From: Candidatus Gastranaerophilales bacterium
GTDB lineage: Bacteria > Cyanobacteriota > Vampirovibrionia > Gastranaerophilales > Gastranaerophilaceae
Direction of reading: 5' to 3'
DNA: 58,973 bases
Assembly (NCBI GenBank): GCA_947589705.1
Contig: CANQCO010000001.1
Coordinates: 1-58,973, forward strand
In this document: piece by piece, positions 3,679 to 45,900 of the stretch
Layout: each line of letters opens with the position of its first letter
Position numbering within the stretch: the stretch's first letter is position 1
Made by a program: the position numbers and the translations under genes
Notes under the pieces: generated by a model
The model's database searches: none
Told to the model about the DNA's origin: nothing
The model's input: the letters and a program-made list of their open reading frames with translations, nothing else

Positions 3679-6600
3679 ATGGATTTTAATGAAATAAAAA
3701 AAATAAAAATTAATATAAACCAATCTTTACCTAAAAAACAGGAAAATATAATTAAAAGTGATGATAATAATATAGCTTATGAACACAACAATTCTCCTGT
3801 TGATCCTTTATACTGGCAAAAAACCTCCGGTATAAATAATCAAGATATATCATTTGGCTCTTCTGAAAAATCTAATCTAAATGATAGTGAATTTATAGAT
3901 GAATGTATAACTAAAATAAAATTCTTTGCTTATTCCGTTAATAAAACACCTGATGAAGAATATTTCAGACAAACTCTTCAAAATATACTTCCATTAGGTA
4001 AAGAAGCGGTGGAACTTTATGTAAATATGGTTTGTTATTTAGAATATGACAAAAAGAATGATAATTCAGAAGAAAATATAAAAAAAGAAAATATATCCGA
4101 TTTCGTTTTAAGATTGGGAAATTCACCCGACCAAATAAAAAAACTAAATTATCTTTCAATGCCTAATTTTCTAACTACTGAAACAATGTCATTAATTATA
4201 AATAATGATTGTGAACAGATTGACACTGAAACAATAAAACATATAATTGATGAGTTATATAAGGATAAGAGTAAAGCTGACATTATAAATTTATTATCTT
4301 CCGATAAAAATATTACAAATGCAGATATTACAAATAAAGATATATTAAATGTATTACAATTTAAATTTGATTCTAAAAAAGAAACTCAAAATGATAGTCA
4401 ATTATTTATGAAGGTTCTTGAATCTTTAAAGCAAAAAATAGAAAAAAATGATTCTGTATTTTGTAATATTGAATATTTGTTAAATTTTTTCTCTATGTTA
4501 AATAGCGAAAATGTTGAGGCATTACTTGAAACAACAAAAAATATGTCTTTGGATGATACAATTGATGAGGCAAAAAAATTCACAAATCCGGTAACAAAAA
4601 AATATGATACAGATTTAAAATCTTTTTATGAAAAATTAAAAGACTACGGTATATCAGATGATTATAGAAAAGATTTGGCATTTGAATGTGTAGACTGTGA
4701 AACGGGTGAAATTAGTCCTGTAGCTCTTGATTTTTTGAATTTTATTTTTCCTGATAAATTTTCTGTTAAAACTAAATTTATAAATAAAATTCAAGATTTC
4801 AGTATGAAAGCAAGTTCGTATGCTATATTAATTAATAATATTCCTAAAAGAAATAGAGATATAATTCCATTGATTAAATGTTTAAAGGACAATAATCAAA
4901 AATTTGAATTAAAAAATTTAATATATTTGAAAAAATATATATTAATGGCTGAAACTAAAAATTATAAAAATATCTGTGAAGTATTCAAATTGATGAAGGA
5001 CGAAAATGGAATAATAGATAATGATAAATATATGTTAGGAAAAAATATAACAAAATTAATGGACTCGCCGGATGACGCTTTGCCTGTCCTTGAAAAATTA
5101 TTTAATTTCCCTAATTCAAAACAAAAAAATATATATGATATTTGTAGAAGTATTTGGAATAAACGTGATTTAGAAAAGAATTTAAAAGAATATTTAGAAT
5201 ATTGTTTTACTGAAGATGGTATGCCTATCCAAAAAAATATAGACTATATTCACCAAATTCACAAAATTAATCCTAATCAAAGCTTAGATAAAAATGTAAT
5301 TGATATGTTTAGAGAATCACCCGATAGTAAAAATTTTGTGTTTGAAGTATTAAAAAATATGGATAAAGATGATGATATAGGTCTAATTCGATTAGGTAAA
5401 ATTTACAATACCTATAAACAAAACAATAAAACTATTCCTCTAGAAATAAAGGGATATATATTAAAATATGTCAAGAAAGTTCACTGTTTAGATGGTTTTT
5501 CTAGAATATATGATTATTGTAGTAGAAATGGAAGTTTTGATTATGCAAACTATAATAAAATTTTAAACTTTATTGGGTTGATTTCATTCAAATCGTTGGA
5601 GCCTGTTGTTAAAGATAATTTACTTGAAATAGTTACTGAAAATTTAAAACCTGAAGAAATTAATTTCAAGATGAGAGTTTCTCTTCTGAATTCACTGCAA
5701 AAAATTACAAAATCTACTAATGCAAATGAAAATGAAATTGAAGAATATAAATATATATTAAAAGTTATTTCTGATATAGAAAAAAGTATAAATCAAACCA
5801 ATATATCTAATCCGATAAATGAAACAGATAGAAAAAATTTTATATCTAATATTTTGATATCAAATTCCAATAATACCCCTACCGAATTTGAAAAAATAAT
5901 GGCAGATTCTATTCCTGTTTTTAAAACATTTAAAACAGGAATTCCATTAACATATTCAAGAAAAGAATTTTTAGAAGATTTAAGTGAACTGTGTGATAAT
6001 CAAGAAAAACTTAATATACTTACAAAAAAAACAGGTATAACACCTATAATAACTGATAGTAATAATATAACAGGATATAATGGATTATTGAATTTAAATA
6101 AATTAGATTTAAATAATCCGTTTGAAAAACAACTATATGGAATAATAAATAAGTTTATATATCAAAATGAAGTTAATACAGGAAACAAACCATTAGATAA
6201 AGAACTTAATTATATTATTAAAGCTTGTCCTGAATTTATTAATATAATAGGGAAAGTTCAACATGGGACTCATGATTATACATTGGATATTCACTCTTTA
6301 TTAGTATTAGCAAATTCAATAAACAATCCTAATTATAGGATAAAATTAAATGAAACTGATAGAACTGTAATAAAATTTGCTTGTTTATTCCATGATATAA
6401 CTAAAATTGAAAATACAAAAGATAAAGGTCATCAATATCAATCAGCTATTTATGCAGGAAGTATATTAAAAAAATTCAGTAATAGTATAGAATTAAACGA
6501 TAGATTATGTGAAATAATAAAAAATCATCACTGGCTGGAAGAATATTCTGAGAGTCCAAATAAAGAACATGAAGCTAAAAAGCTTGCATTTAGTTTTAGA

Positions 6601-7542
6601 CGTCCTAATGATTTTGAAATAGCTAAAATAGTGGCTAATGCAGATTTAATGTCAGTTAGTGATAAATTCTATAATGAGAATAAAGAACAACTTAATGAGA
6701 ATAATTTAGAACTTATACAGAAAAAACTTGATTTTTTGTATTCTACAGGTAATGCTGTTTTTACTGATTATATAATTTCACCAAGTAAATTAAAACAGCA
6801 TACGATTACTAAAAATGGTGTTGAATATAATGTAATAGATTTTAATAAAATTAAAGATAATGAGGATTTATCAGATTACGGATTTAATTACATGAAAAAA
6901 GATGATGTAAGATTTCTTGTTCATATGGTTGAAGACGATAACTTGTATGAAGATTTAAATACTGCACGAATACTTACTTCACCATTCAATGGTGGAATAT
7001 TATCAGAATCTATTATTTCTCCAAAATATCAAAGAACTTATTCTAATAGAAAATTTGGTTTATTACTTTCTCAAATTAATACAAATATAATTAATGAAAA
7101 CAGAGCAAATCAAAAAAGTGGTAAACAAAAAGGATTTAGTGATCTTATTCAATTATTATACAATGATTTAAAATTAAATTTACGAATGAACTTTAGGAAT
7201 AGTCTATTAAAAAATTTAGGAATAGATTTAAATGAAGTTAGTGATGAAGATTATGGCGAATTTTATAAAAATGTTCTTGCTTCAAAAACATCTTTAAGCC
7301 AAATCAATCCTCAAACAAATTATAAAATAGGTAAATATTCTTTTACCGGACAAACTTTGATTAATGCAATAAAAAAATATCAAGACAATTTAATAGATTC
7401 AAAAGAAAATAATCATAATGAAATAGTAGGATATACTCCAAAAATAAAAGGATTAATAGCAAAAGTAAAAAGTTTTGATGAACTTCCTGAGGATTTTTTA
7501 CAATTTGCTCGCGAAAATAATTATCCTATAATATTAATATGA
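3679..7542 (+). CDS. 1287-aa Asn/Lys/Ile-rich protein with one internal HD-superfamily phosphohydrolase domain
   Basis: Uninterrupted 3.9-kb ORF. HD signature H..H(x~30)LFHDITK(x~20)H(x~25)KNHHW around nt 6250-6680. The rest has no motif I recognise. No signal peptide. Confidence 0.6.
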   Translation: MDFNEIKKIKININQSLPKKQENIIKSDDNNIAYEHNNSPVDPLYWQKTSGINNQDISFGSSEKSNLNDSEFIDECITKIKFFAYSVNKTPDEEYFRQTLQNILPLGKEAVELYVNMVCYLEYDKKNDNSEENIKKENISDFVLRLGNSPDQIKKLNYLSMPNFLTTETMSLIINNDCEQIDTETIKHIIDELYKDKSKADIINLLSSDKNITNADITNKDILNVLQFKFDSKKETQNDSQLFMKVLESLKQKIEKNDSVFCNIEYLLNFFSMLNSENVEALLETTKNMSLDDTIDEAKKFTNPVTKKYDTDLKSFYEKLKDYGISDDYRKDLAFECVDCETGEISPVALDFLNFIFPDKFSVKTKFINKIQDFSMKASSYAILINNIPKRNRDIIPLIKCLKDNNQKFELKNLIYLKKYILMAETKNYKNICEVFKLMKDENGIIDNDKYMLGKNITKLMDSPDDALPVLEKLFNFPNSKQKNIYDICRSIWNKRDLEKNLKEYLEYCFTEDGMPIQKNIDYIHQIHKINPNQSLDKNVIDMFRESPDSKNFVFEVLKNMDKDDDIGLIRLGKIYNTYKQNNKTIPLEIKGYILKYVKKVHCLDGFSRIYDYCSRNGSFDYANYNKILNFIGLISFKSLEPVVKDNLLEIVTENLKPEEINFKMRVSLLNSLQKITKSTNANENEIEEYKYILKVISDIEKSINQTNISNPINETDRKNFISNILISNSNNTPTEFEKIMADSIPVFKTFKTGIPLTYSRKEFLEDLSELCDNQEKLNILTKKTGITPIITDSNNITGYNGLLNLNKLDLNNPFEKQLYGIINKFIYQNEVNTGNKPLDKELNYIIKACPEFINIIGKVQHGTHDYTLDIHSLLVLANSINNPNYRIKLNETDRTVIKFACLFHDITKIENTKDKGHQYQSAIYAGSILKKFSNSIELNDRLCEIIKNHHWLEEYSESPNKEHEAKKLAFSFRRPNDFEIAKIVANADLMSVSDKFYNENKEQLNENNLELIQKKLDFLYSTGNAVFTDYIISPSKLKQHTITKNGVEYNVIDFNKIKDNEDLSDYGFNYMKKDDVRFLVHMVEDDNLYEDLNTARILTSPFNGGILSESIISPKYQRTYSNRKFGLLLSQINTNIINENRANQKSGKQKGFSDLIQLLYNDLKLNLRMNFRNSLLKNLGIDLNEVSDEDYGEFYKNVLASKTSLSQINPQTNYKIGKYSFTGQTLINAIKKYQDNLIDSKENNHNEIVGYTPKIKGLIAKVKSFDELPEDFLQFARENNYPIILI

Positions 7543-12628: not shown

Positions 12629-12662
12629 TTAATATTATATTATACATAGTGTTTTTTAATAA

Positions 12663-12690
12663 TAAATTGATTATATTTGTCTAAAATTGA
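12663..12690. promoter_or_regulatory. direct repeat AAATTGAT x2 with 20-bp period upstream of the MerR-like gene (candidate operator)
   Basis: AAATTGAT at 12663-12670 and 12683-12690, about 60-85 nt upstream of ATG 12750. A short AT-rich repeat, so a chance match is plausible. Confidence 0.2.
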
Positions 12691-12749
12691 TATTTTTAAT
12701 AAATTATCTAGACACTTTAAAAAATTATTAAGTATGTTAAAATATATAT

Positions 12750-13319
12750 ATGGATAATAATTTAAAAATAGCATTTAATACTAATTTTGTTTCTTCTTTG
12801 ACAGGAGCAAGTGTATCTCAGTTAAATTTATGGGATAGAAAAGGACTTGTATCTCCAAGCATTATTAAGTCGTCTGGGAGGGGAACAATCAGACTATATT
12901 CATTTAAAGATATTATTGAAATAAAAACAGTTGTATATTTAAGAGCGAATAAAATTAGCCTATCTAATATAAAACTTGCAATATCATATCTTCAAAATAC
13001 TTTTGATTATTCTTCACCTTTATCAGAGCTATTATTAATTTCTAATGGTCAAGATGTATTATGTGCCCCCGAATCTAAAATTAATATAAATGATTATAGT
13101 GCGAAATGGCTAGCTGCAAATAAAGGTGGTCAGCTTGTAATGCCTTTTGTTGTACCTTTAGGTGCAATAACTCAAACTATTGACGCTGCAATAAAAAAAT
13201 ATAATGAAAGAATAAAAGAAGCTGAAGAACAAGAAGCGAATGGTTCTTTGATTTCATTAGAAGAGATAGAGGGAAGTATTTTTGGTGTATCAAGTAAAAT
13301 TAATAAAAAGCGTGCTTGA
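12750..13319 (+). CDS. MerR-family HTH protein (189 aa), candidate antitoxin/regulator of the downstream RelE-like gene
   Basis: Classic MerR N-terminus: F.SSLTGASVSQLNLWDRKGLVSPS....G.R.YSFKDI.EIK.VVYLR.N.ISL..IK. Its 3' end overlaps the RelE-like ORF. Confidence 0.7.
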   Translation: MDNNLKIAFNTNFVSSLTGASVSQLNLWDRKGLVSPSIIKSSGRGTIRLYSFKDIIEIKTVVYLRANKISLSNIKLAISYLQNTFDYSSPLSELLLISNGQDVLCAPESKININDYSAKWLAANKGGQLVMPFVVPLGAITQTIDAAIKKYNERIKEAEEQEANGSLISLEEIEGSIFGVSSKINKKRA

Positions 13320-13587
13320 TGAAGATATACCAAAATTGAAAAAATCGGGTATTAATTTAGAGGCACTTTATAGGTCAATAAAAAAATTAGAAACTAATCC
13401 TTATGGTAGTTCAAGAGCAAAAACCGGGGATTTGCAAGGAATTAGGGGAATGGATTGGAATAAAGGATATAGAATCCTTTTTAAAATTGATGAAGAAAAA
13501 ATGTTCGTAACTATAATGTCAATTGATAATCATGATGATTCATATAAAAAAGTCAAAAAACGAATTACATCATCTAAAAATATCTAA
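13282..13587 (+). CDS. RelE/ParE-superfamily toxin-like protein
   Basis: About 100 aa. ..DIPKL....(x)..LQGIRGMDWNKGYRILFKIDEEKMFVTIMSIDNHDDSYKK matches the RelE/ParE pattern (G.YR.i%.i......v.i..i.hr...Y). The exact start is uncertain (TTG 13282 or GTG 13285). It overlaps the upstream gene. Confidence 0.7.
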   Translation: MVYQVKLIKSVLDEDIPKLKKSGINLEALYRSIKKLETNPYGSSRAKTGDLQGIRGMDWNKGYRILFKIDEEKMFVTIMSIDNHDDSYKKVKKRITSSKNI

Positions 13588-13610
13588 GTTAATATATAAT
13601 TTCATTTTAT

Positions 13611-14633
13611 TTATTTAATTTCTTCTCTAATATGTTTGTTTATAAATTCATTTAATGCATTTTCACAACAGTATGTAAAATCGACATTATTTCCAAATAT
13701 TTCTTTATATCTATTTTTAATTCTCTCATCAGTATTAATTACATATATATTTACTTGTTTTTCTTTATTACTTAATGCTGAATCAAATAGAAATCTTATG
13801 GATAAATCAGTTACTGGAAATGAAAAACCAATAATATATATTTCATCCGCATTCTTAAGTACATCATATGCATCTGCCCATATACTTTTTAGTATATTGT
13901 GATTATAAAAATTTGTTTTATCAAGTACAGGAGGAATAATGTATGAGGTTAAGTCTTTTCGCAAATATTTGTCTACATTCCCATGTGTCATATATATAGG
14001 ATCAGCAGGATTTGTTCCTGACCAAAGCCAATTTATTGAACCATGTAGTTTATGAATAACTGGGAAATTGTCTTTTCTTTGAAATACTTTGATTGTAAAA
14101 TAATCTCCAAGGCAAGTATACCCTTGTGGTGTTCTTTCGATTATATCAATAATGGCTTGTTTATAAAAATAATTAAAGAATTTGCCGTGAGAATCTTCTT
14201 TAAATAAATAATAAAACAACAATTTTTCTAACAAAGTATCGTAATTTAGTGTAATAGATGTAATTTTGTTATCTATAATATATTTTGCCAAAACATCACT
14301 ATTTTGAAAATCGTACTCGGAGTTAATATCTATATTATTAAAATAATCTGCAATTTTATTTGTAAGTTCAAAATACAATGCTTTATCTAAATGTAACATT
14401 TGTGGATTTTGCCAAGGTAAGTCAGAATACAAATATGTTAATAAATGTTCAATATTATTTTTATATTTTTCTGAAATTTCATTCAAATGGGCATATATAG
14501 AATTTTTTGAGAAGTTATTTAATATTTCATTGGACAAATTTTTTAGTGTAGGGTATTTTTTATTATTGGTTATGCACTGTTGGGCAAGTGCAATTGAAAA
14601 ACCTGCACCAAGAAAAAATGCTTTATTTACCAT
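13611..14633 (-). CDS. stand-alone SIR2-like (SIR2_2 family) protein, putative NAD+-consuming effector
   Basis: Motifs FLGAGFS (GAGxS NAD loop), TLNYDTLLE (TxNYD), KLHGSINW (catalytic His) and IIGFSFPVTD (GxS..D), in the order seen in defence-type SIR2 domains. AGGAG lies 7 nt upstream of the ATG. The ATG lies inside the last codons of the RM gene (11-nt overlap). Confidence 0.75.
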   Translation of the reverse strand: MVNKAFFLGAGFSIALAQQCITNNKKYPTLKNLSNEILNNFSKNSIYAHLNEISEKYKNNIEHLLTYLYSDLPWQNPQMLHLDKALYFELTNKIADYFNNIDINSEYDFQNSDVLAKYIIDNKITSITLNYDTLLEKLLFYYLFKEDSHGKFFNYFYKQAIIDIIERTPQGYTCLGDYFTIKVFQRKDNFPVIHKLHGSINWLWSGTNPADPIYMTHGNVDKYLRKDLTSYIIPPVLDKTNFYNHNILKSIWADAYDVLKNADEIYIIGFSFPVTDLSIRFLFDSALSNKEKQVNIYVINTDERIKNRYKEIFGNNVDFTYCCENALNEFINKHIREEIK

Positions 14634-17436
14634 TTATAATCTCCTGATACATTTTCATTAATTCGGCGACGGTTTCGGATTCTGTCAGCCAATGGTATTT
14701 ACCGTTTTCATCTTTCTTTTTAAAGCCATAAGTTTCCATTACGGCTTTGTCGTTTTCTTGGTGTGCTTTTCTTAACTCTGGCGGCATTGTGAGTTCGTCA
14801 TATAAATCAGCTAAAGAGCAATCGGGATATAGCGCTCTGGCGTCTAAAATAGCTTTTGCAGTGCGCTCTATTTTTGTCTTTTGTTCATCCGTTGGATTAC
14901 ACCAAGGGAAATTATTGTAAACAATAGTATTTGAATATCTGTAATCACTTTTTAATCTACCGCAAACCGCTCTCATCCAAGCCATGTGGACATTAGAAGT
15001 TAAGATACCAAAATGATATATGTTAGAATTTGGAATTATAAAATTTGCATTACTGCTAATACATTCATGTGACATAAATCCTATTGGTATATATTTCCGA
15101 TTTTCAGAAGAATGACTAGGAATTAGTATATATTCAGTTTTTGGCTGTCTTATTTCCATAAATCTTGTAGGATACTCTGCAAATTTTCTAGTAGCCTTTT
15201 TTGAACTTGCCAGTCTTATTTCTTTTACTTTTTTTATTCGGTCTAGTACCAATGGACAATTTTTTAGTTCTGTAGGCGTAGATTCTATTAACCATAGACA
15301 ATATCTATCTTTTTTATTTATAAATTCTTCTGAGCCAATAAATTTTTTTATAAATTTCTTTGCTTGTGGTTCTTTTATTATAAAAGTATTATAATCATCT
15401 GCTTCAATTATTAAATTTCCTCCGTCAACAGGTATGCTTCCTTTTTCCATTATTGGCACATTACATATTGGTTTTTTAATATTGTCTATAAAGATATTAT
15501 TAGCATTTAATAAATATGCATTTATATTATCAACAAGTTGCACTCTTTCACCGGAGAATAATTTTCTTTTATTGTTATTTTGTGCACAACTAAAACCTAC
15601 AATTACACAATGAACATGTGCTTTTGAATTTGATTCACTATCCCAGCGGAATGTTCTATGTGCAAAATCAATATGAATATTGAATCTTTCAAATAATGGT
15701 TTCCAAACACCTGCTACTTGTTCGCCTTGTGTTATAGAATTTGTTGAAACTAAAGCTGTTGATATGTTCTTCCCCCCCCCCCCCGACATAAAATCAGAAG
15801 CTTTATAATACCATCCTGCAACATAATCAATTTTACCTGACGTTTTATATGGTTTTCCTTTTTCATCAACATAAATTGAAAGTATGTCATTTTTTTGTTC
15901 TTTTGATTGCAATGAATATCCTACAAACGGCGGGTTACCCATTATATAATTAAGTTTATCTTTTGATATAACATCTTGCCAATCAATTCTTAGAGCATTT
16001 CCTTCAACAATATTTGCGTATGTTTTGAGTGGCAAGAAGTCTAAATCCATATGAACTATATCTTCTGTTTTTTTCATCATTTGTGATTCAGCTATCCATA
16101 ATGCAGTTTTTGCTACCGTTACGGCGAAATCATTTATTTCAATTCCGTAAAATTGCTGTATGGAAACTTTTATCGGATTAACAATTGAGCCTAAGGTCTT
16201 TTGACCTTTTAAAAGTTCAAATAAAATTTCATTTTCCAATTTCCTTAAAGAAATATAAGTTCCCGTTAAAAAGTTTCCGCTACCACACGCAGGGTCTAAA
16301 AAATTCAAACTTGCAATTTTGTTTTGGAATTCTGATAATTTTTTATCTCTTGCCTTATTATCAGGCAGTTTCTTTATTTCTTCAAATTCTTTATTTAAAT
16401 CATCCATATATAACGGGTCAATTACTTTATGGATATTTTCTATTGAGGTATAGTGCATTCCGCCTTTTCTTCTCGTAACAGGATTTAATGTACTTTCAAA
16501 AACCGCACCGAATATTGTCGGGCTTATTTCAGACCAATCAAAATCAGCACTTGCTTTATTTAAAAGTAATTCTCTAATTTCATCGGTAAAACATGGTATC
16601 TCAATATTTTTATTTGCAAAAAGTCCGCCATTTACATAAGGGAATGCTTTTAATTCAGGCTCTAAATACGGGTCTCTATCTTCAATTTTTGTATTTAATA
16701 TTTGGAATAAATCAATTAAGGCTTTTCTCATGTGGTTTGTATCAAACTGTTTCATATAATCAAGAAACATATCATGTTTGCCGAAAATTCCCGCATCTTC
16801 CGCATACAAACAAAATACTAACCTAACACATAATATATTCAAACTTTTTAGAGTTTCTTCGTTTGTTTTATCAATATACTGATTCAATAAAGCATCATAT
16901 AAAAGCCCGACTATATCTCCGGCTTTTATTGAAACTTCCATTTCTTTTCTTAAATGTTCATTTCCTGTGTCTGTTAAAAAAGACAAACGATAATATTCTT
17001 TTTCTAAATCTTTAAGTAAAATCTCTTGAGGTTCGCCGTTTGGCTGTTCCATATCATATATGCAAAACTTCTTAAAATTAGATATTACAACCCACCTTGG
17101 TTGTTTAGAAAATGGTAATTCGGCTCTATATCTTTTTGCTTGCTGAAATGGAGTTAATAAACTTCCGTCTGATTGTTTAATAGCTTTGTTTAAATCTATC
17201 TTAGAACTTTTTTGTTCAATCAAAACTTTTGTTTCTTCAATATAACCGTCTATAAAACTTGTATGGTCTAATTTTACTTGTTCTTCAAATGTAATAAATT
17301 GTTCAGGATGTTCAACGCCTAAAACATTTCTTAATAATGAAATCCAAAATGGCTGACTTTCTCCCTTTTCGTATCCCTTATCTTTCCAGAAATCAACAAA
17401 TTCTCTAATAGATGTTCTTTGTTTTGAATCCGCCAT
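14623..17436 (-). CDS. MmeI-family type IIL (IIG) restriction-modification enzyme: fused PD-ExK nuclease, N6-adenine methyltransferase and target-recognition domain
   Basis: The N-terminus parallels MmeI: FIDGYIEETKVLIEQKS (D..ExK nuclease motif) and PRWVVISNFKKFCIYDM. SAM motif I is FLDPACGSGNFL. Catalytic motif IV is IMGNPPFVGYS. Followed by VSTNSITQGEQV. 937 aa. Confidence 0.85.
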   Translation of the reverse strand: MADSKQRTSIREFVDFWKDKGYEKGESQPFWISLLRNVLGVEHPEQFITFEEQVKLDHTSFIDGYIEETKVLIEQKSSKIDLNKAIKQSDGSLLTPFQQAKRYRAELPFSKQPRWVVISNFKKFCIYDMEQPNGEPQEILLKDLEKEYYRLSFLTDTGNEHLRKEMEVSIKAGDIVGLLYDALLNQYIDKTNEETLKSLNILCVRLVFCLYAEDAGIFGKHDMFLDYMKQFDTNHMRKALIDLFQILNTKIEDRDPYLEPELKAFPYVNGGLFANKNIEIPCFTDEIRELLLNKASADFDWSEISPTIFGAVFESTLNPVTRRKGGMHYTSIENIHKVIDPLYMDDLNKEFEEIKKLPDNKARDKKLSEFQNKIASLNFLDPACGSGNFLTGTYISLRKLENEILFELLKGQKTLGSIVNPIKVSIQQFYGIEINDFAVTVAKTALWIAESQMMKKTEDIVHMDLDFLPLKTYANIVEGNALRIDWQDVISKDKLNYIMGNPPFVGYSLQSKEQKNDILSIYVDEKGKPYKTSGKIDYVAGWYYKASDFMSGGGGKNISTALVSTNSITQGEQVAGVWKPLFERFNIHIDFAHRTFRWDSESNSKAHVHCVIVGFSCAQNNNKRKLFSGERVQLVDNINAYLLNANNIFIDNIKKPICNVPIMEKGSIPVDGGNLIIEADDYNTFIIKEPQAKKFIKKFIGSEEFINKKDRYCLWLIESTPTELKNCPLVLDRIKKVKEIRLASSKKATRKFAEYPTRFMEIRQPKTEYILIPSHSSENRKYIPIGFMSHECISSNANFIIPNSNIYHFGILTSNVHMAWMRAVCGRLKSDYRYSNTIVYNNFPWCNPTDEQKTKIERTAKAILDARALYPDCSLADLYDELTMPPELRKAHQENDKAVMETYGFKKKDENGKYHWLTESETVAELMKMYQEIINGK
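15772..15784 (-). repeat. homopolymeric tract: C13 on + strand, G13 on the coding strand of the RM gene
   Basis: Counted directly: 9 C at 15772-15780 plus 4 C at 15781-15784. Read on the minus strand as TCG GGG GGG GGG GGG AAG, giving S-G-G-G-G-K. Confidence 0.95.
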
Positions 17437-17479: not shown

Positions 17480-18061
17480 TTAACTGTTTTGTACTAAATT
17501 AAGCAGATTGTTATAAACATCAACAGTTTGATAACAAATGGGTAATTTCCTTTTTAAAAGGCTTTTGATTGTAATTTTAAAGCTTTTTAAAAGAGCTTCA
17601 TCAAGATTATTATTTTTGTTTAAAGCTTTTTCGATTTTTTCACGAAACTTTAGTTCTCTGGTTCTTGTCTCTATTTTATCGGCAATAAAAATAATCTTTT
17701 CAAACTCGCTCATGCCTATTTTGCCTACTGTATGCCACCTGATGGAAGAAAGTATTTCTTCATCATCAACGCCCCAGTCTTTTTTTGCAATTATAGCGCC
17801 GACAGGTGCATGCCAAGTTTTTTCACTTAATTTTTCGCAATCTTCAAAATTATCTTTGTATTTTAAAAGTTCATCTTTAGGGAAACATTTTGCGCAGTCA
17901 TGCAACAGCCCTGCCAGTTGAGCCTTTTTAACATCGCAGTTAAATTTTTGCGCAAGCTCAACTGCTTTTTCCATTGTACCTATTGAATGAAGATAGCGTT
18001 CTTCAGACAGTATTTCTTTTAATTTTTCTTTTATTTCTTCAATACTATATTTTATATACAT
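17480..18061 (-). CDS. yqeK: HD-domain bis(5'-nucleosyl)-tetraphosphatase YqeK
   Basis: RY.HS.GT...A.ELA..(x)..AGLLHDCAK HD motif, about 190 aa, immediately after nadD as in the conserved nadD-yqeK pair. ATG 18061 is preferred over the TTG at 18085 in the ORF track. Confidence 0.75.
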   Translation of the reverse strand: MYIKYSIEEIKEKLKEILSEERYLHSIGTMEKAVELAQKFNCDVKKAQLAGLLHDCAKCFPKDELLKYKDNFEDCEKLSEKTWHAPVGAIIAKKDWGVDDEEILSSIRWHTVGKIGMSEFEKIIFIADKIETRTRELKFREKIEKALNKNNNLDEALLKSFKITIKSLLKRKLPICYQTVDVYNNLLNLVQNS

Positions 18062-18644
18062 TATTTTTCTCGATATATTCAGCAACTTTTAACGGTACAA
18101 GGTCAATTAAACTTTCATGGTTTTTTGCCTTTTCCCTTATAAGTGTAGCAGATATATCCCAAAATGGCATATCCGTTAAAATATAATTATAACCTTTTTC
18201 TTTTAAGTTTATAAATTGGGTTTCATCAAAATTATTATGGCGTTTAAAAAGGATAAAATTAACAAGGTCTTTGAGTTCTTGCGACCTATACCATGATTCA
18301 ATGTGGATAAAGGCATCCGTACCTATAATAAAATTAATTTTTTCGGTATTTCCCGTTATTTGATTAATTTGAGTAATTGTATCAAAGGTATATGAGGGCT
18401 TATTTCTGGTATATTCAATAGCTGAAAAATTAAAGTAGGGTATATCTTTAACTGCGAGTTCCACCATATTAAGCCTATGTATTGCATTATCGGAATCAAA
18501 CTCAGCAGAATCTTTATGAGGAGGCTTAAAGGCAGGTATAAACATAATTTCATCCATATTTAATTTGTCATGCACATATTCAGCCGCCTTAAGATGTGCA
18601 TTGTGAATGGGATTAAATGACCCTTGAAATAGACATATACTCAT
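18045..18644 (-). CDS. nadD: nicotinate-nucleotide adenylyltransferase
   Basis: N-terminal GSFNPIHNAHL nucleotidyltransferase motif, 199 aa, ISAT.IR near the C-terminus, followed by yqeK. Confidence 0.85.
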   Translation of the reverse strand: MSICLFQGSFNPIHNAHLKAAEYVHDKLNMDEIMFIPAFKPPHKDSAEFDSDNAIHRLNMVELAVKDIPYFNFSAIEYTRNKPSYTFDTITQINQITGNTEKINFIIGTDAFIHIESWYRSQELKDLVNFILFKRHNNFDETQFINLKEKGYNYILTDMPFWDISATLIREKAKNHESLIDLVPLKVAEYIEKNNVYKI

Positions 18645-19621: not shown

Positions 19622-20563
19622 TTACAATTTATTTTGAGGCATAAAGCAACTCATATACATAGAAAAAAAAGTTAATAAACATTGTTGTTGTCCTTCTTCA
19701 GAAATACCTTTATTTTTTAATGCTTCAATATATTTTTTTGAGATGGAGTCTATGTCTTTTATTACGGATTGTTTCTGTTCTTCGCTAATTTTATATTCTG
19801 AATTAATATATGTTGGAATATATCGTATGTTTGTTAGTGCAAAAAGTAAACCACCCCAATTAATAGAACTTGGAAATTTAACCATATCAGTTAATTTAAG
19901 AGTTTTAGTTTCTTTATCAACCATTATATTATTGGAATTTATATAATCAAAAAAATAACCGCATTTTGCTGCTTCTTTAATATCATCTATTAATTTTTCA
20001 TAAGTACTGACCGGAAAAGAAGCCAGCATTGAAAGAAAATTCTCATATTTTTTTTTCATTTCTTTGGAAGAATAAAATGAATATAATTTAAAATCATCAT
20101 CGAAAAATTGTTCATATACTTCTATAGGGGCAATTCCTATAGATTCACCTTTTTGTTTTTTTAGTATAGAAATAGAAGAACAATCATTAGTCGTATTAAA
20201 ATTAATTTTAGCTACTTCTTGTCCTATATTTATTTTTAAGTTCTTGTCTTCAACATCTTCAATACTATAATTTTCTATATTGACTTCATTTATATTAAAA
20301 TCAACAGGAACTCTTAAAACATAATCATTGCAATGCGGGATAGAGTATACTTTATGAAAGAGCCCTCTGCCTATTTCATTTTTTGAACAAGACAATGTGT
20401 TTTTTAATTCTAATTGAATAAACTTTGAAGTATTTAACCAATTTACAGCTTTTGACGAAGAACAAACCTTCTTTTCAAAAATATCACCTTGGAAAGAGAT
20501 ATTTTTCTTTGCAATTGAAAAATTTCTCATTTTAACTGCGGGAGCTATAGGAGAAATTTTCAT
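19622..20563 (-). CDS. atypical protein-kinase-like fold protein, paralog B
   Basis: Paralog of 20565-21584 along its full length. Gly-rich loop IGRGLFHKVYSIP, then YVLRVP, then GYFFDYINSNNIMVD...LKLTDM (catalytic D/N and metal-binding D equivalents). Start moved to ATG 20563 (MKISPIAP), 1 nt after the upstream stop. The ORF-track extension to 20647 overlaps the neighbour. Confidence 0.5.
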   Translation of the reverse strand: MKISPIAPAVKMRNFSIAKKNISFQGDIFEKKVCSSSKAVNWLNTSKFIQLELKNTLSCSKNEIGRGLFHKVYSIPHCNDYVLRVPVDFNINEVNIENYSIEDVEDKNLKINIGQEVAKINFNTTNDCSSISILKKQKGESIGIAPIEVYEQFFDDDFKLYSFYSSKEMKKKYENFLSMLASFPVSTYEKLIDDIKEAAKCGYFFDYINSNNIMVDKETKTLKLTDMVKFPSSINWGGLLFALTNIRYIPTYINSEYKISEEQKQSVIKDIDSISKKYIEALKNKGISEEGQQQCLLTFFSMYMSCFMPQNKL

Positions 20564-20564
20564 A

Positions 20565-21584
20565 TTATTCAACGATTCCCATTTCTTGAAGTTTTTGCCA
20601 TTTTTTATTGTCATCCGTACTATTACAATAAAAACAAAACGGCACACTTAAAAATAATTTCATAAATTCATAAGTACAGCTATCTTTGTCAATTTTTAGA
20701 CCTTTATTTTTCATAGCCTGCATATATCTATCAATAATGGTAATGGTATTTTCTATAGCCTGATATTTTTCATCGTCAGTAACTTTATAACCAAAATTAC
20801 CGGAATAAGTAGTATTATAATTGATATTGGAAAGGGCATAAAGTACATTACCATAATTTAAATATCCGCTATTTTTATCCATATCAATTAAACCAATAGT
20901 TTTACTATTTTCATCATACATAAGATTATTGGAATTTAAGTAGTCAAAATAATAACCCAACTCATTAGTATGTTTAAGATCATCAAGAAGTTTTTCATAA
21001 GCACTTACGGGCATATTAGCAAGTGCTTTTATTGAAGCGGCATACTTATCTTTATTTATTTTTGAATCATATTCCGCCTCACCTTCTTTTAATTGCCCTG
21101 ATTCATAGGATATGGCTTCAAAAGGAGGCACTCCTACGGGTTTCCCGTGTTGTTTTCTTAATAAGGAAACTAGAGATTCATTTCCATTATTATCTAAAAA
21201 TATAATTTGAGCAGCTTCCTGCCCTATGTTAACCTTTAAATTTTTATCTAGTGTATCTTTTATTTTATATTTATTTATATCTATTTTATTTAAATCAAAA
21301 TGGTTAGAAGTCCTTAATACGTAATCTTCATTACCGGGAATAGAATAAACACAATGATGAAAACCTTGTCCTATTTTGTTATTGCTGTCAGAAAGTATTT
21401 TGCATAATTCTTGTTTAATAAAATTTGAATTTTCCAGCCAATTAATAGCGGGATTTTCCGCTTGAACTTTATATTCGGTTCTTTCAAATGTATCAGATTG
21501 TATTACACTGTTAGTCAATGCTTCATTTAGTTTTTTATTTGCTTTAAATGAATAGTTTATTGGTGATATTGAATTTATTATCAT
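20565..21584 (-). CDS. atypical protein-kinase-like fold protein, paralog A
   Basis: IGQGFHHCVYSIPG..DYVLRTS, then GYYFDYLNSNNLMYDENSKTIGLIDMD, resembling the APH/choline-kinase Brenner motif (D....N ... D). 339 aa. Confidence 0.5.
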   Translation of the reverse strand: MIINSISPINYSFKANKKLNEALTNSVIQSDTFERTEYKVQAENPAINWLENSNFIKQELCKILSDSNNKIGQGFHHCVYSIPGNEDYVLRTSNHFDLNKIDINKYKIKDTLDKNLKVNIGQEAAQIIFLDNNGNESLVSLLRKQHGKPVGVPPFEAISYESGQLKEGEAEYDSKINKDKYAASIKALANMPVSAYEKLLDDLKHTNELGYYFDYLNSNNLMYDENSKTIGLIDMDKNSGYLNYGNVLYALSNINYNTTYSGNFGYKVTDDEKYQAIENTITIIDRYMQAMKNKGLKIDKDSCTYEFMKLFLSVPFCFYCNSTDDNKKWQKLQEMGIVE

Positions 21585-42943: not shown

Positions 42944-45900
42944 ATGTTAGTTCAGGGAAGCATTAATTCACAAAAAGAAGAAATCCTTTTAAATAAATAC
43001 AAAGAATTCATAAATTCGGGAGTTAATGCCGAAGAAATTTTAGTACTTAAATTAAATCCTTATAAAAAAAATATTTTTTATGAAAAATTAATTAAGGAAA
43101 TTCCCGAAGATAAATTAAAAAATCACAAAATAATGACTCTGTACGGTTTAAGCTATAACAGCTTTTATGATAATAAAGAATACATAAAAAAATTAATAAA
43201 AACCGATGATGATAAAGAGATAAATTTATGCGGGCTTGAGGTCTCCCAATATATATTTAAGAAAAGCATAAAAGAAGCTGATTTTTCTGACTATATATCA
43301 AAAGTAAATCTTCTTCACCAATTATTCAGAAGATATTCTTTGATAGTACAGAATAATCTCAGTAATGAAGAAATAGTAAAACGCTCTTGCATATTAAAAG
43401 AATCGTTTTATAAAGATGCACAAAAAGCAATTAATGATTATAAAGTTAAAACAATAGAATACAGAAGTTTTGATTATTTAAGACAACTTGCCATATTACC
43501 TTTAATTCAAAAGGATACCGATTACTTTAAAGGAATAAAATACCTAATGGCAGATGATGCGGATGAAATGCCTTATATATTATTTCAGTTTATATATAAT
43601 CTTATTCCTCAGTTAGATGATTATATAATTATATATGATAAATACGGTTCAACCAGAAGCGGATACTTATGTGCATATAAGGGAGGAATTAATGAATTAA
43701 AAAAAAGATTCTCGCCTAAGGAAATAATTTTAAAAGACAATAGTTATTTTAAACAAACAGCTCAAACATTATACGAAAATATAAAAAACGGTAAAAAAAC
43801 CGATATATCAGAATTTAAATATATAAATACAACCAAACGACTGGAAATGGCAGATATTGTTATTGAGGATATTAAAAAATTAATAAATTCCGGAGTAAAC
43901 CCTAATAATATTGCTCTTATTACACCTGTTGCCGATGAGGTGCTTATTCAATATTTAACAAATAATAATTTTGGAATAAATTTTCAAATTATTTCGGGTA
44001 ATACAAAATTAGCAGAAATAAAAATAATAAAATATATTATTTCCATGCTTAAAATTGCAAATTCAATAAAAATAAATGACTATGAATTGAAAAGTTTACT
44101 TGTTGAATTTCTTAAGATACCTTATAGAAAATGTTTTAAGATAATAGAAAAGTATAAAAAAACGAACGAACTAATAAAATCAGAATTTGACAATGAAATA
44201 TACAGTGAAAAGTATATAAAACTTTTGAGTATAATTAAATCTATAAATCCCGAAATACACTCACTTACGGAGCAAATTAAGATAATTCGCTCTAATTTAT
44301 TAGAAATCGAAACAGAAGAAGAAATAAAGAAATATGATTTTTTTATAAAAGAAGCCCAAAGTTTTGAAACTGCCTTTTCTTCTTCAAGTGAAAGCATAGT
44401 TACGGATTTTATCAATCAAACAGAGAACAGTATAATAAGTGAAAACCCTGTAAATTCATTTTCATTAAAAGAAAACAGCGTTATATTAAGTTCAATTCAA
44501 AAATTATCCGATTATGAAATAAATACAGATTACCAAATGTGGCTTGATGTATCTAATTGTGATTGGTTTAAACAAGACACGGGAACATTATATAATTCGT
44601 GGGTTTTTAATAAAGACTGGAATAAAAATACATATTCTTCAGAAGATTGTATTAAATTAACAAGGGAAAAGACAGCTGCAACGGTTAGAAAATTAATATT
44701 ATGTGCAAATAAAGAAATCAGATTTTACTCCAGTATATATGATAATTTCGGAAATGAGAATTTTTCGGGGCTTTCTGATTTTCTTGAAATAAGGAAACAA
44801 ACAAAAAAAGAATATAACATAACTCCAAGGGATGACCAAAAACCGGTGTTGGAATATAAAGAAGGGAAAATGGCGGTAACGGCTGTTCCCGGGGCAGGTA
44901 AAACAACAATTTTACTTTCTTTAATAATAAAACTTCTAACATCCGGCGTTAATCCAAATAATATATTCGTTTTAACCTATATGGAATCTGCCGCTAAAAA
45001 CTTTAAAGATAAAATAAAGCAATATTTTGATGAATCAAATGTAATGCCAAATATTTCAACAATCCACGGACTTGCTCTCAGAATTATTAAAGAGAACGGA
45101 AATTATATTAAAATGGGACTTGATGAAGACTTTGACATCTGTGATGATATTATTAAAGAAAAAATTATAAAAGAAATTTTCTATAAATTGAAAATTCCTG
45201 ATGAAAAATATGAAAATTACTTAAAAAGCATTTCTATTGTTAAATTAAGCGGATTAAATAAGGAATTTAAATCAAAATACTCTGATATACAAGAATTTTA
45301 TAATTTTCTCAAATTATACAATCAGACACTAAAGCAAAAAAATTTAATAGATTATGATGATATGCTTAAATATTCCGTTTTGATACTAAAGACAGATAAA
45401 GAAACAAGAGAATACTATCAGAATCTGTGTAAATATATAATTGAAGATGAGGCTCAAGATTCAACGGATATTCAACAGTCATTAATCAATATTCTTTCAC
45501 AAAAGCATAAAAATATAGTAAGGTGTGGGGATATAAATCAATCTATTACTTCTACTTTTACAAATTCTAATTTAGAGAGTTTTAAGAAATTTATAAATGA
45601 AAATAAAAAAGTAGAGATGACCTCATCTCAAAGATGCGCAAAGCCTATTTATGAGCTTGCCAATAAAATGATTAAAGCAGCACAGACAAATGATAATACT
45701 AAAAACGCTTTTTATAATATATCCGTAAAAGGAACACCAAATAATCCAAAAGATAATAAAGAACCTGAGTATATTGTTTTTGATAGTGAAAAAGAAGAAA
45801 AGACTTTTATTTTAAATAAGATTAAAGAAATAAAGAAAAATACCCCCTGCTCTTCAATCGCAATACTTACAAGATTAAATTCCCAAGTAAATGATTATAA

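Follow-up and report, generated by a model that had tools for sequence, protein, structure and literature searches.

A SIR2 gene overlapping an MmeI-family restriction-modification gene in a Gastranaerophilales bacterium: a probable NAD+-consuming effector in a variable cassette

Introduction

Sir2-superfamily enzymes have been described as AbiH components and linked to type I and type III restriction-modification (R-M) systems (Makarova, Anantharaman, Aravind, Koonin 2012; PMC3506569). This link was an in-silico observation made within the immunity-suicide coupling hypothesis, in which Sir2 serves as the toxin or suicide arm. AbiH is a sirtuin-like single-gene abortive-infection (Abi) system of ~346 aa from lactococci and streptococci, for which phage resistance has been shown, while the model case of a second line behind restriction is PrrC/EcoprrI, an anticodon nuclease encoded within a type Ic R-M locus. 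Guilt-by-embedding has since been used to find defence genes lodged within loci of type I R-M, BREX, DISARM, and Hma (Payne et al., 2024). One example of such embedded genes is TgvAB on VPI-2 of V. cholerae, and Gao19 pairs in S. thermophilus are also found as insertions inside R-M loci or downstream of them. As for triggers, m6-dAMP is that of PUA-Cal-HAD and dITP that of the Kongming SIR2 complex.

Here we describe a gene pair in a stretch of 58,973 nucleotides (hereafter, the window) from a Candidatus Gastranaerophilales bacterium. The initial annotation proposed the pair as a candidate undescribed module combining R-M with an NADase. However, the general link between R-M and Sir2 was published in 2012 (PMC3506569) and embedding was generalised by Payne et al. 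(2024). What stands is the narrower statement that no pairing with a type IIL enzyme is known to have been described: in the literature searched, no paper joined SIR2 to MmeI or to type IIG/IIL enzymes, and none reported an experimental test of the 2012 observation for this SIR2 family. Overall, the association has been known since 2012, and the type IIL partner is new.

The MmeI-Family Enzyme and the SIR2 Protein

The upstream gene of the pair (14,623–17,436, minus strand) encodes a 937-aa MmeI-family type IIL/IIG R-M enzyme. Its translation contains FIDGYIEETKVLIEQKS, PRWVVISNFKKFCIYDM, FLDPACGSGNFL, GNPPF, and VSTNSITQGEQV, and follows the MmeI layout: a nuclease motif of PD-ExK type lies at the N-terminus and a C-terminal domain at the other end, with a helical spacer, a gamma-class N6-adenine methyltransferase (FLDPACGSGNFL, NPPF), and a TRD in between. 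Each of the five Pfam domains of MmeI (MmeI_N, MmeI_hel, MmeI_Mtase, MmeI_TRD, and MmeI_C) is matched far above cut-off (E 3e-86 to 4e-21), the PADLOC model REase_MTase_IIG scores 1176 bits, and the MmeI crystal structure (PDB 5HR4) is matched in sequence over residues 9–909, nearly the full length (E 1.7e-195). Coordinates, motifs, and profiles thus agree with the assignment made in the initial annotation.

The downstream gene (13,611–14,633, minus strand) encodes a stand-alone, single-domain SIR2 protein of the immune type (SIR2_2 or "SIRim"), 340 aa in length, whose translation contains FLGAGFS, TLNYD, KLHGS, and IIGFSFPVTD. By itself, the window protein falls below the Pfam SIR2_2 cut-off (21.6 versus 24.5 bits), but all 31 aligned relatives match this profile. 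The AlphaFold (AF2) model adopts a sirtuin fold (pLDDT 87, pTM 0.88), and its best Foldseek match is the SIR2 subunit of SIR2-HerA (8wld_Q, TM 0.61), followed by sirtuins, DSR2, and ThsA; the Kongming SIR2 complex (9xvc) is also among the matches. The putative catalytic Asn/Asp of the TLNYD motif (N130-Y131-D132, codons at 14,238–14,246, minus strand) and the putative catalytic His of the KLHGS motif (H197, codon at 14,043–14,045, minus strand) are invariant in the 31 relatives, and align with the putative catalytic N163/D165 and H212, respectively, of the Paenibacillus SIR2 (8W9L). Because relatives, fold, and triad all agree, the SIR2 identity proposed from the four motifs is secure despite the sub-cut-off score. 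The protein is probably an NAD+-consuming effector, judging from its relatives. Compared with its counterparts in loci L001 and L002, its dN/dS is 0.14–0.25, values by which the gene is taken to be maintained under purifying selection, and no positive selection is detectable among the closest alleles.

On the basis of conservation, alleles, and pLDDT, residues ~101–190 (14,064–14,333, minus strand) form the most variable part of the protein: family conservation is 0.24–0.37 in blocks 101–120 and 161–190, and pLDDT drops below 50 at residues 172–182. This region is a candidate specificity or regulatory part. Domain and structure searches found no recognisable sensor, nucleic-acid-binding, or nucleotide-sensor domain in the window SIR2. 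The Pfam AbiH model gives no match to it at E<=0.01 and touches 5 of the 31 relatives weakly, while PADLOC AbiH models match none of the relatives at E<=0.001. In PADLOC, generic SIR2 HMMs are the sole matches of the family, which is not among the named systems or candidates of v2.

The Overlapping Junction and Its Recurrence

The junction (14,623–14,645, minus strand) also marks where the variable cassette begins on its 5' side. Read along the minus strand, it consists of an AGGAG (14,645–14,641), a 7-nt spacer, the SIR2 ATG (14,633–14,631), and the MmeI TAA stop (14,625–14,623), giving a gene overlap of 11 nt. Both the overlap and the separate AGGAG, on which the initial annotation had based translational coupling, were verified. 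This arrangement indicates that translation of SIR2 would be coupled to that of MmeI on the MmeI mRNA and, because the genes overlap, the two are presumably co-transcribed. The adjacency is not confined to this contig: the pair recurs with the same junction and 11-nt overlap in L001/L002, L086, and L171/L172, spanning three diverged lineages in which MmeI is 70–73% and SIR2 56–57% identical.

Close MmeI homologues nevertheless occur without SIR2. Three sampled loci of this kind, L174, L175, and L176, found on 1, 24, and 13 contigs, encode enzymes 83%, 81%, and 77% identical, respectively, to that of the window. L174 is syntenic with the window, occupying the same nadD-yqeK...TspO site without SIR2, and its MmeI shares 98.2% identity with the enzyme of the SIR2-bearing L001, with differences mainly in the last 6 residues; between loci with and without SIR2, differences in the MmeI tails are confined to the final ~6 residues. 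In blastn against the sibling genome L174, homology extends over 19,304–14,645, ends at 14,645, and resumes from 12,643, delimiting a variable segment of ~2.0 kb (12,644–14,644) that holds SIR2 and a ParE/MerR pair; L174 carries instead ~1.3 kb with two unrelated ORFs. MmeI homologues 75–83% identical to that of the window form more than 120 clusters, versus no more than a handful of close relatives for SIR2.

The ParE/MerR pair comprises a convergent gene for a 101-aa ParE/RelE-like toxin (13,282–13,587, plus strand; Pfam ParE-like_toxin 3e-06, NCBIfam RelE_StbE 8e-04) and an overlapping gene for a 189-aa MerR-type HTH protein (12,750–13,319, plus strand; Pfam MerR_1 7e-10), a putative antitoxin or regulator. 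The toxin gene is kept beside SIR2 in L001/L002 and is absent from L086 and L171; it probably belongs to an independent toxin-antitoxin pair.

Genomic Contexts of the SIR2 Family

A census of 54 loci encoding proteins at least 33% identical to the window SIR2 was made with probes for type I systems, MmeI, one GmrSD-like gene, and HamB. A type I gene adjoins SIR2 in 18 loci and lies within 4 kb on the same strand in three more; MmeI adjoins it in five, Hachiman in four, and a type IV gene in one, so that SIR2 lies on the same strand beside a restriction or Hachiman gene in 31/54. One further locus has a probe match within 5 kb on the opposite strand. The remaining 22, including housekeeping and recombinase contexts, have no match to any of these probes, and such "solo" loci may adjoin other R-M types. 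Solo copies are of equal length and retain the same invariant residues. Some of them may depend on R-M systems encoded at other sites in the genome.

The commonest setting of the clade is inside type I operons of the order hsdM-SIR2-hsdS-hsdR, mostly right after hsdM with a conserved 8-nt overlap; other copies come after hsdR, a GmrSD-like type IV gene, or Hachiman HamB. In type I operons, HsdM is 92–100% identical, yet SIR2 is only 45–56% identical between allele groups, which marks SIR2 as a swapped or hypervariable cassette, and DNA homology between operons otherwise 88–95% identical breaks within the variable part of SIR2. This comparison gave no sign of co-divergence with the partner, and the SIR2s linked to MmeI do not cluster in a clade specific to that partner. 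Unrelated defence genes fill the same slot, namely RhuM/Fic, KwaB-like, and DUF4917/PDC-S21 genes; the DUF4917 SIR2-like neighbour in L008 matches candidate PDC-S21 of Payne et al. (2024). No HerA gene adjoins SIR2 in the window or in the relatives' loci examined. Overall, neither MmeI nor SIR2 requires the other; the self-sufficiency of MmeI enzymes is upheld, and the proposed module is not obligate.

Proposed Function and Alternative Explanations

The reading that we favor, with slightly better than even confidence, is that SIR2 works on its own as an abortive-infection NADase resembling AbiH and, expressed together with the restriction enzyme, forms a second layer behind it. A self-sufficient MmeI-type R-M gene would have captured a mobile, hypervariable accessory SIR2 cassette at its 3' end, the cassette bringing its own ribosome-binding site and rewriting only the last ~6 MmeI codons. 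A phage-derived cue, probably sensed by the hypervariable central region, would cause SIR2 to hydrolyse NAD+ via the N130/D132/H197 site and halt growth of the infected cell, backing up restriction against phages already methylated or carrying anti-restriction functions. Lodging right behind restriction-system genes, most often hsdM, would be a habit of the family that allows co-expression and co-transfer. NADase activity, trigger, and Abi outcome are suggested here by analogy with ThsA, DSR2, SIR2-HerA, and AbiH. However, the strong tendency of SIR2 to lie immediately 3' of the gene for a gamma-class N6-adenine methyltransferase (hsdM, MmeI) counts against autonomy, as does the bare SIR2 domain of the window protein, since characterised bare SIR2 effectors (SIR2 of SIR2-HerA) need a partner. 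A functional tie would equally predict the overlapping codons and the conserved junctions in two R-M types.

Such a tie might resemble PrrC, with SIR2 held inactive by binding the methyltransferase module common to HsdM and MmeI until the R-M enzyme is put out of action or remodelled by a phage-encoded anti-restriction protein, which would free SIR2 to deplete NAD+; restriction and suicide would then be mechanistically coupled. The 21 loci in or beside type I operons, mostly right after hsdM, and the five directly after MmeI, each with its conserved overlap, would fit, as would a SIR2 protein without a sensor domain. PrrC itself provides the precedent, being an effector that is encoded inside a type I locus and that the R-M inhibitor Stp sets off; Sir2 from type I/III R-M loci is listed alongside it in the immunity-suicide coupling hypothesis (PMC3506569). 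We consider this guard rather unlikely, given that 22 of the 54 loci have no R-M probe nearby, several lying among housekeeping genes, that copies after hsdR, a GmrSD-like type IV gene, or HamB are offered no such methyltransferase surface, that SIR2 alleles diverge behind near-identical HsdM, and that PrrC, unlike this family, is almost exclusively embedded.

Less probable still is activation of SIR2 by DNA ends, oligonucleotides, or (methylated) nucleotides released by restriction or nuclease-helicase systems, by which a failing restriction event would be amplified into NAD+ depletion. The diverse partners (type I, type IIL, type IV, Hachiman) do all cut or process DNA, and nucleotide-derived danger signals trigger other effectors, including PUA-Cal-HAD and the Kongming complex, but solo copies exist, the protein has no recognisable domain for binding nucleic acids or sensing nucleotides, and a conserved small-molecule or DNA-end ligand would leave the hypervariable central region unexplained. 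The initial annotation also suggested that SIR2 might instead modulate the R-M enzyme. On this reading, it could be a deacylase or ADP-ribosyltransferase that acts on MmeI/HsdM or DNA and tunes restriction versus modification. Sirtuins are classically such enzymes, mono-ADP-ribosylation was raised as a possibility by Makarova et al. (PMC3506569), and the genes are translationally coupled; because solo copies exist and co-divergence with the partner is not seen, however, we regard this as very improbable, the more so as a near-identical MmeI allele lacks SIR2 and the nearest relatives of SIR2, in structure as in sequence, are immune NADases rather than CobB-type deacylases. It is equally hard to credit that SIR2 is a neighbour by chance that plays no part in defence, or a passenger gene in decay: SIR2 is optional at the MmeI locus and its Pfam score is low, but purifying selection, the invariant triad, same-strand placement in 31 loci, far above chance, and an overlapping junction kept across three lineages all speak against it.

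Comparison with Known Systems

AbiH resembles the window SIR2 in size (~340–350 aa), in consisting of one SIR2-like domain, and in belonging to the "SIRim" immune branch. AbiH acts as a single gene, as the window SIR2 may also do, but has been reported on ICEs and not embedded in R-M operons. With PrrC, the window SIR2 shares the embedding of an effector gene in an R-M operon with which it would be co-expressed. The chemistry is unrelated, PrrC being a tRNA nuclease with an ABC-ATPase-like regulatory domain, as opposed to a SIR2 domain alone. PrrC genes are nearly always embedded, whereas members of this family often stand by themselves, and physical latency and an anti-restriction trigger are PrrC features that are only hypothetical for SIR2. 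The closest solved relative is the SIR2 subunit of SIR2-HerA (Nezha/Gao19), both in sequence (8w9l, E 1e-08) and in structure (8wld_Q), with the same NxD...H catalytic motif and similar size; sequence identity is only 14–16%, and the HerA partner has no adjacent counterpart in the window.

The hsdM-SIR2-hsdS-hsdR layout of the relatives corresponds to the link described in 2012 (PMC3506569), which does not name the partner seen in the window, a single-chain MmeI-type IIL/IIG enzyme. Finally, the genomic logic is that of embedded defence genes, in which an independent defence gene is nested in a multi-gene restriction operon (Payne et al., 2024). That survey left out single-gene type IIG/IIL enzymes as hosts, and the host in the window is such an enzyme.

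Genomic Setting and the MmeI-Family Enzyme

The window is AT-rich (G+C about 30%), and its nearest public relatives are Candidatus Gastranaerophilales (Melainabacteria) gut MAGs. The initial annotation had placed two overlapping genes on its minus strand, and both were recovered: an MmeI-family type IIL/IIG restriction-modification (R-M) gene (14623..17436, minus strand, 937 aa) and a SIR2 gene (13611..14633, minus strand, 340 aa), with every motif quoted for them present in the translations. The rest of the window is housekeeping, including genes for pyruvate formate-lyase (PFL) and its activase, TspO, nadD, yqeK, uridine kinase, ThrRS, a class I aminoacyl-tRNA synthetase, and PriA.

The 937-aa protein matches five Pfam domains of the MmeI_ series in the correct order (E 3e-86 to 4e-21), so ordered on a single chain as N-terminal nuclease, helical spacer, methyltransferase, target recognition domain (TRD), and C-terminal domain. 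The sequence of the MmeI crystal structure (5HR4) aligns to residues 9-909 (E 1.7e-195), and the PADLOC model REase_MTase_IIG scores 1176 bits. The translation contains FID-x10-EQK, FLDPACGSGNFL, and GNPPF, the first being a PD-ExK-type nuclease motif whose residues were assigned from the motif pattern and not from structure superposition; motifs I (xxDPACGSG) and IV (NPPF) of gamma-class N6-adenine methyltransferases are both found. The large ORF is, to judge from these features, a bona fide MmeI-family type IIL/IIG enzyme that is apparently intact. This family's enzymes recognize an asymmetric site, cut about 20/18 nt away from it, and methylate adenine on a single strand. Between the window gene and its counterpart at L001:5210-8011, a locus in a related MAG (L-numbers denote loci of relatives compared with the window), dS is 1.77 in the TRD (codons ~501-800) versus 0.21 in codons 1-500, which implies that the TRD has been exchanged between otherwise close alleles and that specificity is switched by recombination.

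Upstream, nadD (NaMN adenylyltransferase, NAD synthesis) and yqeK (17480..18644, minus strand) end 43 nt before the MmeI start, and because they lie on the same strand at this distance, read-through transcription into MmeI-SIR2 is possible. A meaningful link between nadD and a putative NADase was considered and set aside as probably coincidental, since the other MmeI-SIR2 loci are flanked differently. Promoter and terminator scans gave counts at the level of shuffled sequence (38 versus 39.4; 2 versus 2.0) and are therefore uninformative. Elsewhere in the window are two paralogous tandem ORFs of about 340 aa that have no Pfam match (19622..21584, minus strand), a 1287-aa protein whose sole Pfam match is an HD domain (3679..7542, plus strand), and a 1274-aa UvrD-type helicase in which about 630 N-terminal residues lack any match (42944..46768, plus strand).

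The SIR2 Protein

Taken alone, the window protein is weak on Pfam SIR2_2, scoring 21.6 bits against a gathering cut-off of 24.5. PADLOC generic SIR2 models reach 2e-10, and NCBIfam holds no model for it. However, the identity of the small ORF as a SIR2 protein can be regarded as secured from its relatives, predicted fold, and residues. All 31 aligned relatives match SIR2_2 at E ≤ 0.01 (best 1.3e-10), and the confident AF2 model (pLDDT 87, pTM 0.88) has the sirtuin fold of a Rossmann and a small domain. Among 68 PDB structures matching this model at E ≤ 1e-3, SIR2 proteins make up nearly all of the best 50, the best being the SIR2 subunit of SIR2-HerA (TM 0.61), followed by classical sirtuins, DSR2, and ThsA. 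In addition, N130, D132, and H197 (NxD ... [quoted passage not shown] All 340 residues belong to a bare SIR2 domain, to which no sensor domain is attached.

In an exhaustive profile search, 50%-identity clusters numbered 563 at E ≤ 1e-30 and about 5,000 at E ≤ 1e-10; most of the proteins have 330-350 aa. Sequenced plasmids yielded one distant match and sequenced phages none, so that there is no evidence of carriage on either. PADLOC v2 has no named system for this family, which is matched by generic SIR2 HMMs only. In PADLOC, the pair thus matches REase_MTase_IIG and generic SIR2 models.

Purifying selection acts on SIR2 in the window lineage (dN/dS 0.14-0.25), indicating that the gene is maintained. 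At the sequence level, the locus joins an apparently intact MmeI-type enzyme to a translationally coupled, maintained, and catalytically competent-looking SIR2 domain.

The MmeI-SIR2 Junction and its Variable Cassette

The proposed translational coupling agrees with the junction as read on the window: AGGAG (14645..14641) is followed by a 7-nt spacer and the SIR2 ATG (14633..14631), and the MmeI stop TAA (14625..14623) creates an 11-nt overlap. In 80 representative-genome loci, MmeI lies directly upstream of SIR2 only in L001 and L002, two about 90%-identical Gastranaerophilales MAG loci. This first census hinted that the pair is unique to the window lineage, a notion overturned by the contexts of the next-closest SIR2 clade (51-57% identity), which contains two more independent pairs, one at L086 (flanked by resolvase, YjbR, and UvrA-like genes) and one at L171/L172 (flanked by CDP-alcohol phosphatidyltransferase and GFO/IDH genes). 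The adjacency, whose restriction to this contig would have spoken against the initial proposal, therefore recurs. The 11-nt overlap is identical in both additional lineages, and all junctions are homologous, with an MmeI tail ...AELMKMYQE...K-stop and the stop within SIR2 codons 3-4. The three lineages are mutually equidistant (MmeI 70-73%, SIR2 56-57% identical), which fits a two-gene unit of single origin that later diverged and moved. Because divergence between the MmeI lineages is concentrated in the TRD, this unit exists with different specificities. No partner-specific SIR2 clade emerged: in a tree that is neighbor-joining only, star-like, and poorly resolved, SIR2s linked to MmeI, linked to type I genes, or solo are interspersed at 55-63% identity.

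MmeI also occurs without SIR2. The window MmeI has more than 120 protein clusters at 75-83% identity, and a single SIR2 cluster is >57% identical to the window SIR2; SIR2 is missing beside all three MmeI homologues whose loci were examined, at 83%, 81%, and 77% identity (on 1, 24, and 13 contigs). One of them, L174, shares the neighborhood of the window (nadD, yqeK, MmeI, then TspO, PFL activase, and PFL). DNA homology runs through MmeI and stops at 14645, precisely at the SIR2 ribosome-binding site; it picks up again at 12643. Thus about 2.0 kb in the window, holding SIR2 and a ParE/MerR-like pair, gives way in L174 to about 1.3 kb with two unrelated ORFs. The L174 enzyme is 98.2% identical, TRD included, to that of SIR2-bearing L001 (dN 0.009, dS 0.085), and thus the same allele occurs with and without the cassette. 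Their differences cluster in the last six residues; as read from this alignment, the cassette carries its own ribosome-binding site and only the MmeI tail is rewritten. The position immediately 3' of MmeI behaves like a slot for variable cassettes.

The two replacing ORFs in L174 (4706-5831, minus strand) encode 134 and 242 aa with no family match, and in L175, another SIR2-less MmeI locus, the slot holds a DUF2513 gene. In the window, the overlapping genes of the ParE/MerR pair (12750..13587, plus strand) are convergent with SIR2, lie within the same ~2-kb segment, and encode a 189-aa MerR-type HTH protein and a 101-aa ParE/RelE-like toxin. The pair accompanies SIR2 in L001/L002, is missing from L174, L086, and L171, and is probably an independent toxin-antitoxin module gained or lost together with the cassette.

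Other Genomic Contexts of the SIR2 Family

The commonest setting of this SIR2 is inside type I R-M operons, where Pfam scans of neighboring genes give the order hsdM, SIR2, optional extra genes, hsdS, and hsdR in many loci. Here, the hsdM stop is overlapped by the SIR2 start by 4-8 nt; a second conserved junction type reads …aaaggagctacaaaATGTCTAA. A census covered 54 loci, some duplicating one another, with a SIR2 relative at no less than 33% identity. A type I gene was adjacent on the same strand in 18 and within 4 kb on the same strand in a further 3, MmeI was adjacent in 5 (three lineages), Hachiman in 4, and a type IV gene in 1; in another 1 a probe matched within 5 kb on the other strand. 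None of the census probes lay near SIR2 in 22 of the 54, a figure that is an upper bound because the probe set was limited.

Other arrangements include SIR2 located 3' of hsdR in one integrase-linked island, 133 nt downstream of a GmrSD_N-HNH type IV gene, or directly after Hachiman HamA-HamB, the last in one SIR2 subclade (L017:4907-9014, with HamB at 6e-52 in PADLOC; also L097, L099, and L101). SIR2 also stands in tandem with a DUF4917 gene whose protein matches PADLOC candidate PDC-S21; at L008:515-2639, where the DUF4917 gene follows SIR2 with an overlap and two different SIR2-like genes are thus in tandem, that match is 5e-101. Solo copies are found beside an HTH gene, a resolvase, or plain housekeeping genes. 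At L085:6955-7001, one of these, which follows an 87-aa HTH gene, retains about 45 nt upstream of the ATG that resemble the hsdM 3'-end junction of type I-embedded alleles, a hint that this copy was excised from a type I operon.

Some type I loci carry further unusual genes. An ORF of 301-314 aa without Pfam or PADLOC match always lies 3' of SIR2, with overlapping codons, in one operon family ordered hsdM-SIR2-ORF-hsdS-hsdR (L003:9001-9945, L167:4558-5463, L168:2233-3138, and L173:2692-3516). It is absent from MmeI loci and is possibly another embedded candidate or a SIR2 partner in those type I loci. The island at L081:1-8456 (also L082 and L083), beside an integrase, contains hsdM, a RhuM/Fic gene, three unknown ORFs, hsdR, SIR2, and a 131-aa ORF, and its SIR2 protein occurs on 24 contigs.

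Variability of SIR2 within Conserved Operons

Eight type I loci share 92-100% identity over the C-terminal 300 residues of HsdM, yet their SIR2 genes fall into three allele groups (L003/L005, L006/L088/L089, and L087/L167/L173; HsdR about 95% identical) that are only 45-56% identical to one another; for example, L087 and L003 share 98% of HsdM versus 47% of SIR2. The operons are otherwise 88-95% identical, and DNA homology breaks specifically inside SIR2. Between L003 and L006, SIR2 protein identity is 60-100% at the termini versus 20-47% over residues ~90-270, a localized hypervariability that resembles hsdS shuffling. The family-wide conservation minimum lies at residues 101-120 and 141-190, and AF2 confidence is lowest at residues 172-182. 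No convincing positive selection was detected in the SIR2 centre among the closest alleles (omega 0.17-0.20, over a short distance), and a lone omega of 1.93 was discounted, since it rests on dS=0.013. Judged by these comparisons, SIR2 does not co-evolve with its partner, and the loci together show that it is gained, lost, and swapped in cassette-like fashion behind restriction genes.

Possible Function and Significance

We lean towards a reading in which SIR2 is an autonomous NAD+-depleting abortive-infection effector, responding to a phage cue via its hypervariable centre and layered with restriction through embedding. By analogy to ThsA, DSR2, SIR2-HerA, and AbiH, SIR2 would deplete NAD+ and thereby cause abortive infection. 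The hypervariable centre may sense the phage cue, with SIR2 acting on its own, and embedding would cause SIR2 to be co-expressed and co-transferred with restriction, resulting in layered defence. It is rather unlikely that SIR2 is instead coupled to its R-M partner as a PrrC-like guard, which is the main rival reading. A guard would account for the absence of a sensor domain in SIR2 and for its strong preference for sitting immediately 3' of a gamma-class N6-adenine methyltransferase gene. Copies that are solo or linked to hsdR, type IV, or Hachiman genes weaken this reading, as does the fact that SIR2 and its partner do not co-diverge. A fuller version of the guard, which we rate as equally doubtful, would make this family a dedicated restriction-guard NADase docked on the methyltransferase module common to HsdM and MmeI, silent while R-M is intact, and triggered once that module comes under attack by phage anti-restriction proteins. 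The logic would resemble that of PrrC, with NAD+ depletion as the output, and would extend to types I and IIL; the hypervariable centre would tune which phage inhibitors or triggers are recognized, and solo copies would use R-M systems elsewhere in the genome.

The remaining explanations are all less likely than either an autonomous effector or a guard. Sensing of restriction products by SIR2 seems improbable, and it is more improbable still that SIR2 modifies the R-M enzyme; the chance that it is a functionless neighbor is just as slight.

If the autonomous-effector reading is right, this SIR2 is a compact, widespread single-domain effector, as the 563 clusters would indicate, that rides preferentially inside restriction operons, even though current tools would label it only as an orphan 'SIR2'. 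The immunity-suicide coupling hypothesis for Sir2 enzymes linked to type I and III R-M (Makarova et al., 2012; PMC3506569) would gain clean handles: the operon here has just two genes, with one polypeptide as its entire R-M part; MmeI alleles that are naturally isogenic occur with the cassette (L001) and lacking it (L174); and some type I operons differ almost only by SIR2 allele. Such near-identical backgrounds make the coupling question directly testable. The same natural comparisons could tell whether Abi effectors embedded in R-M loci merely hitch-hike on their hosts or are wired to them, and could map the specificity determinant of a minimal, putative SIR2 NADase. In addition, annotation pipelines could list the family as an R-M-associated SIR2 candidate.

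Comparison with Known Systems

In Thoeris ThsA, DSR1/DSR2, and SPARSA, SIR2 is combined with SLOG and ThsB, with a large C-terminal sensor, or with APAZ and a short pAgo, respectively. In contrast, the window SIR2 is a 340-aa protein with the SIR2 domain throughout and no adjacent TIR or pAgo gene, and Aga_SIR2 is matched weakly by 10 of the 31 relatives. It also differs from SIR2-HerA (Nezha/Gao19) in that its neighbors are MmeI and the ParE/MerR pair, with no adjacent HerA ATPase/helicase; no HerA gene was seen in the relatives' loci examined. SIR2-HerA pairs of S. thermophilus lie within or downstream of R-M loci. In size and single-domain form it agrees with AbiH, a sirtuin-like Abi protein of about 346 aa that is encoded by one gene and has been shown to confer phage resistance; for the window protein, an Abi phenotype is putative. 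Membership in AbiH was rejected on model evidence: the window protein has no PF14253 match at E ≤ 0.01, PF14253 matches 5 of the 31 relatives (best 1.3e-05), and the PADLOC AbiH model is absent among the matches of all 31.

A PrrC-type guard is held latent through physical association with the R-M complex until an anti-restriction factor activates it. The embedding of SIR2 in R-M operons (the 11-nt MmeI overlap; hsdM-SIR2-hsdS-hsdR in relatives) recalls PrrC; however, PrrC is near-exclusive to its R-M partner, whereas SIR2 has four kinds of R-M partner and solo copies in housekeeping contexts. Payne et al. (2024) showed that type I R-M, BREX, DISARM, and Hma loci frequently harbor embedded defence genes, PrrC being an example that is embedded almost exclusively; TgvAB of V. 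cholerae is an embedded case proven experimentally.

Our literature search found no experimental work on this SIR2 family, no relevant paper on SIR2 with hsdM and hsdS, and no pairing of SIR2 with MmeI or any type IIG/IIL enzyme. The initial observation is confirmed and its interpretation partly supported: the proposal of an undescribed R-M-plus-NADase module survives in its type IIL pairing; it does not hold as an obligate two-gene module, given SIR2-less MmeI and MmeI-less SIR2, nor as a new kind of system. Overall, the type IIL host is what is new, and the kind of Sir2-R-M association to which it belongs had already been predicted in silico.
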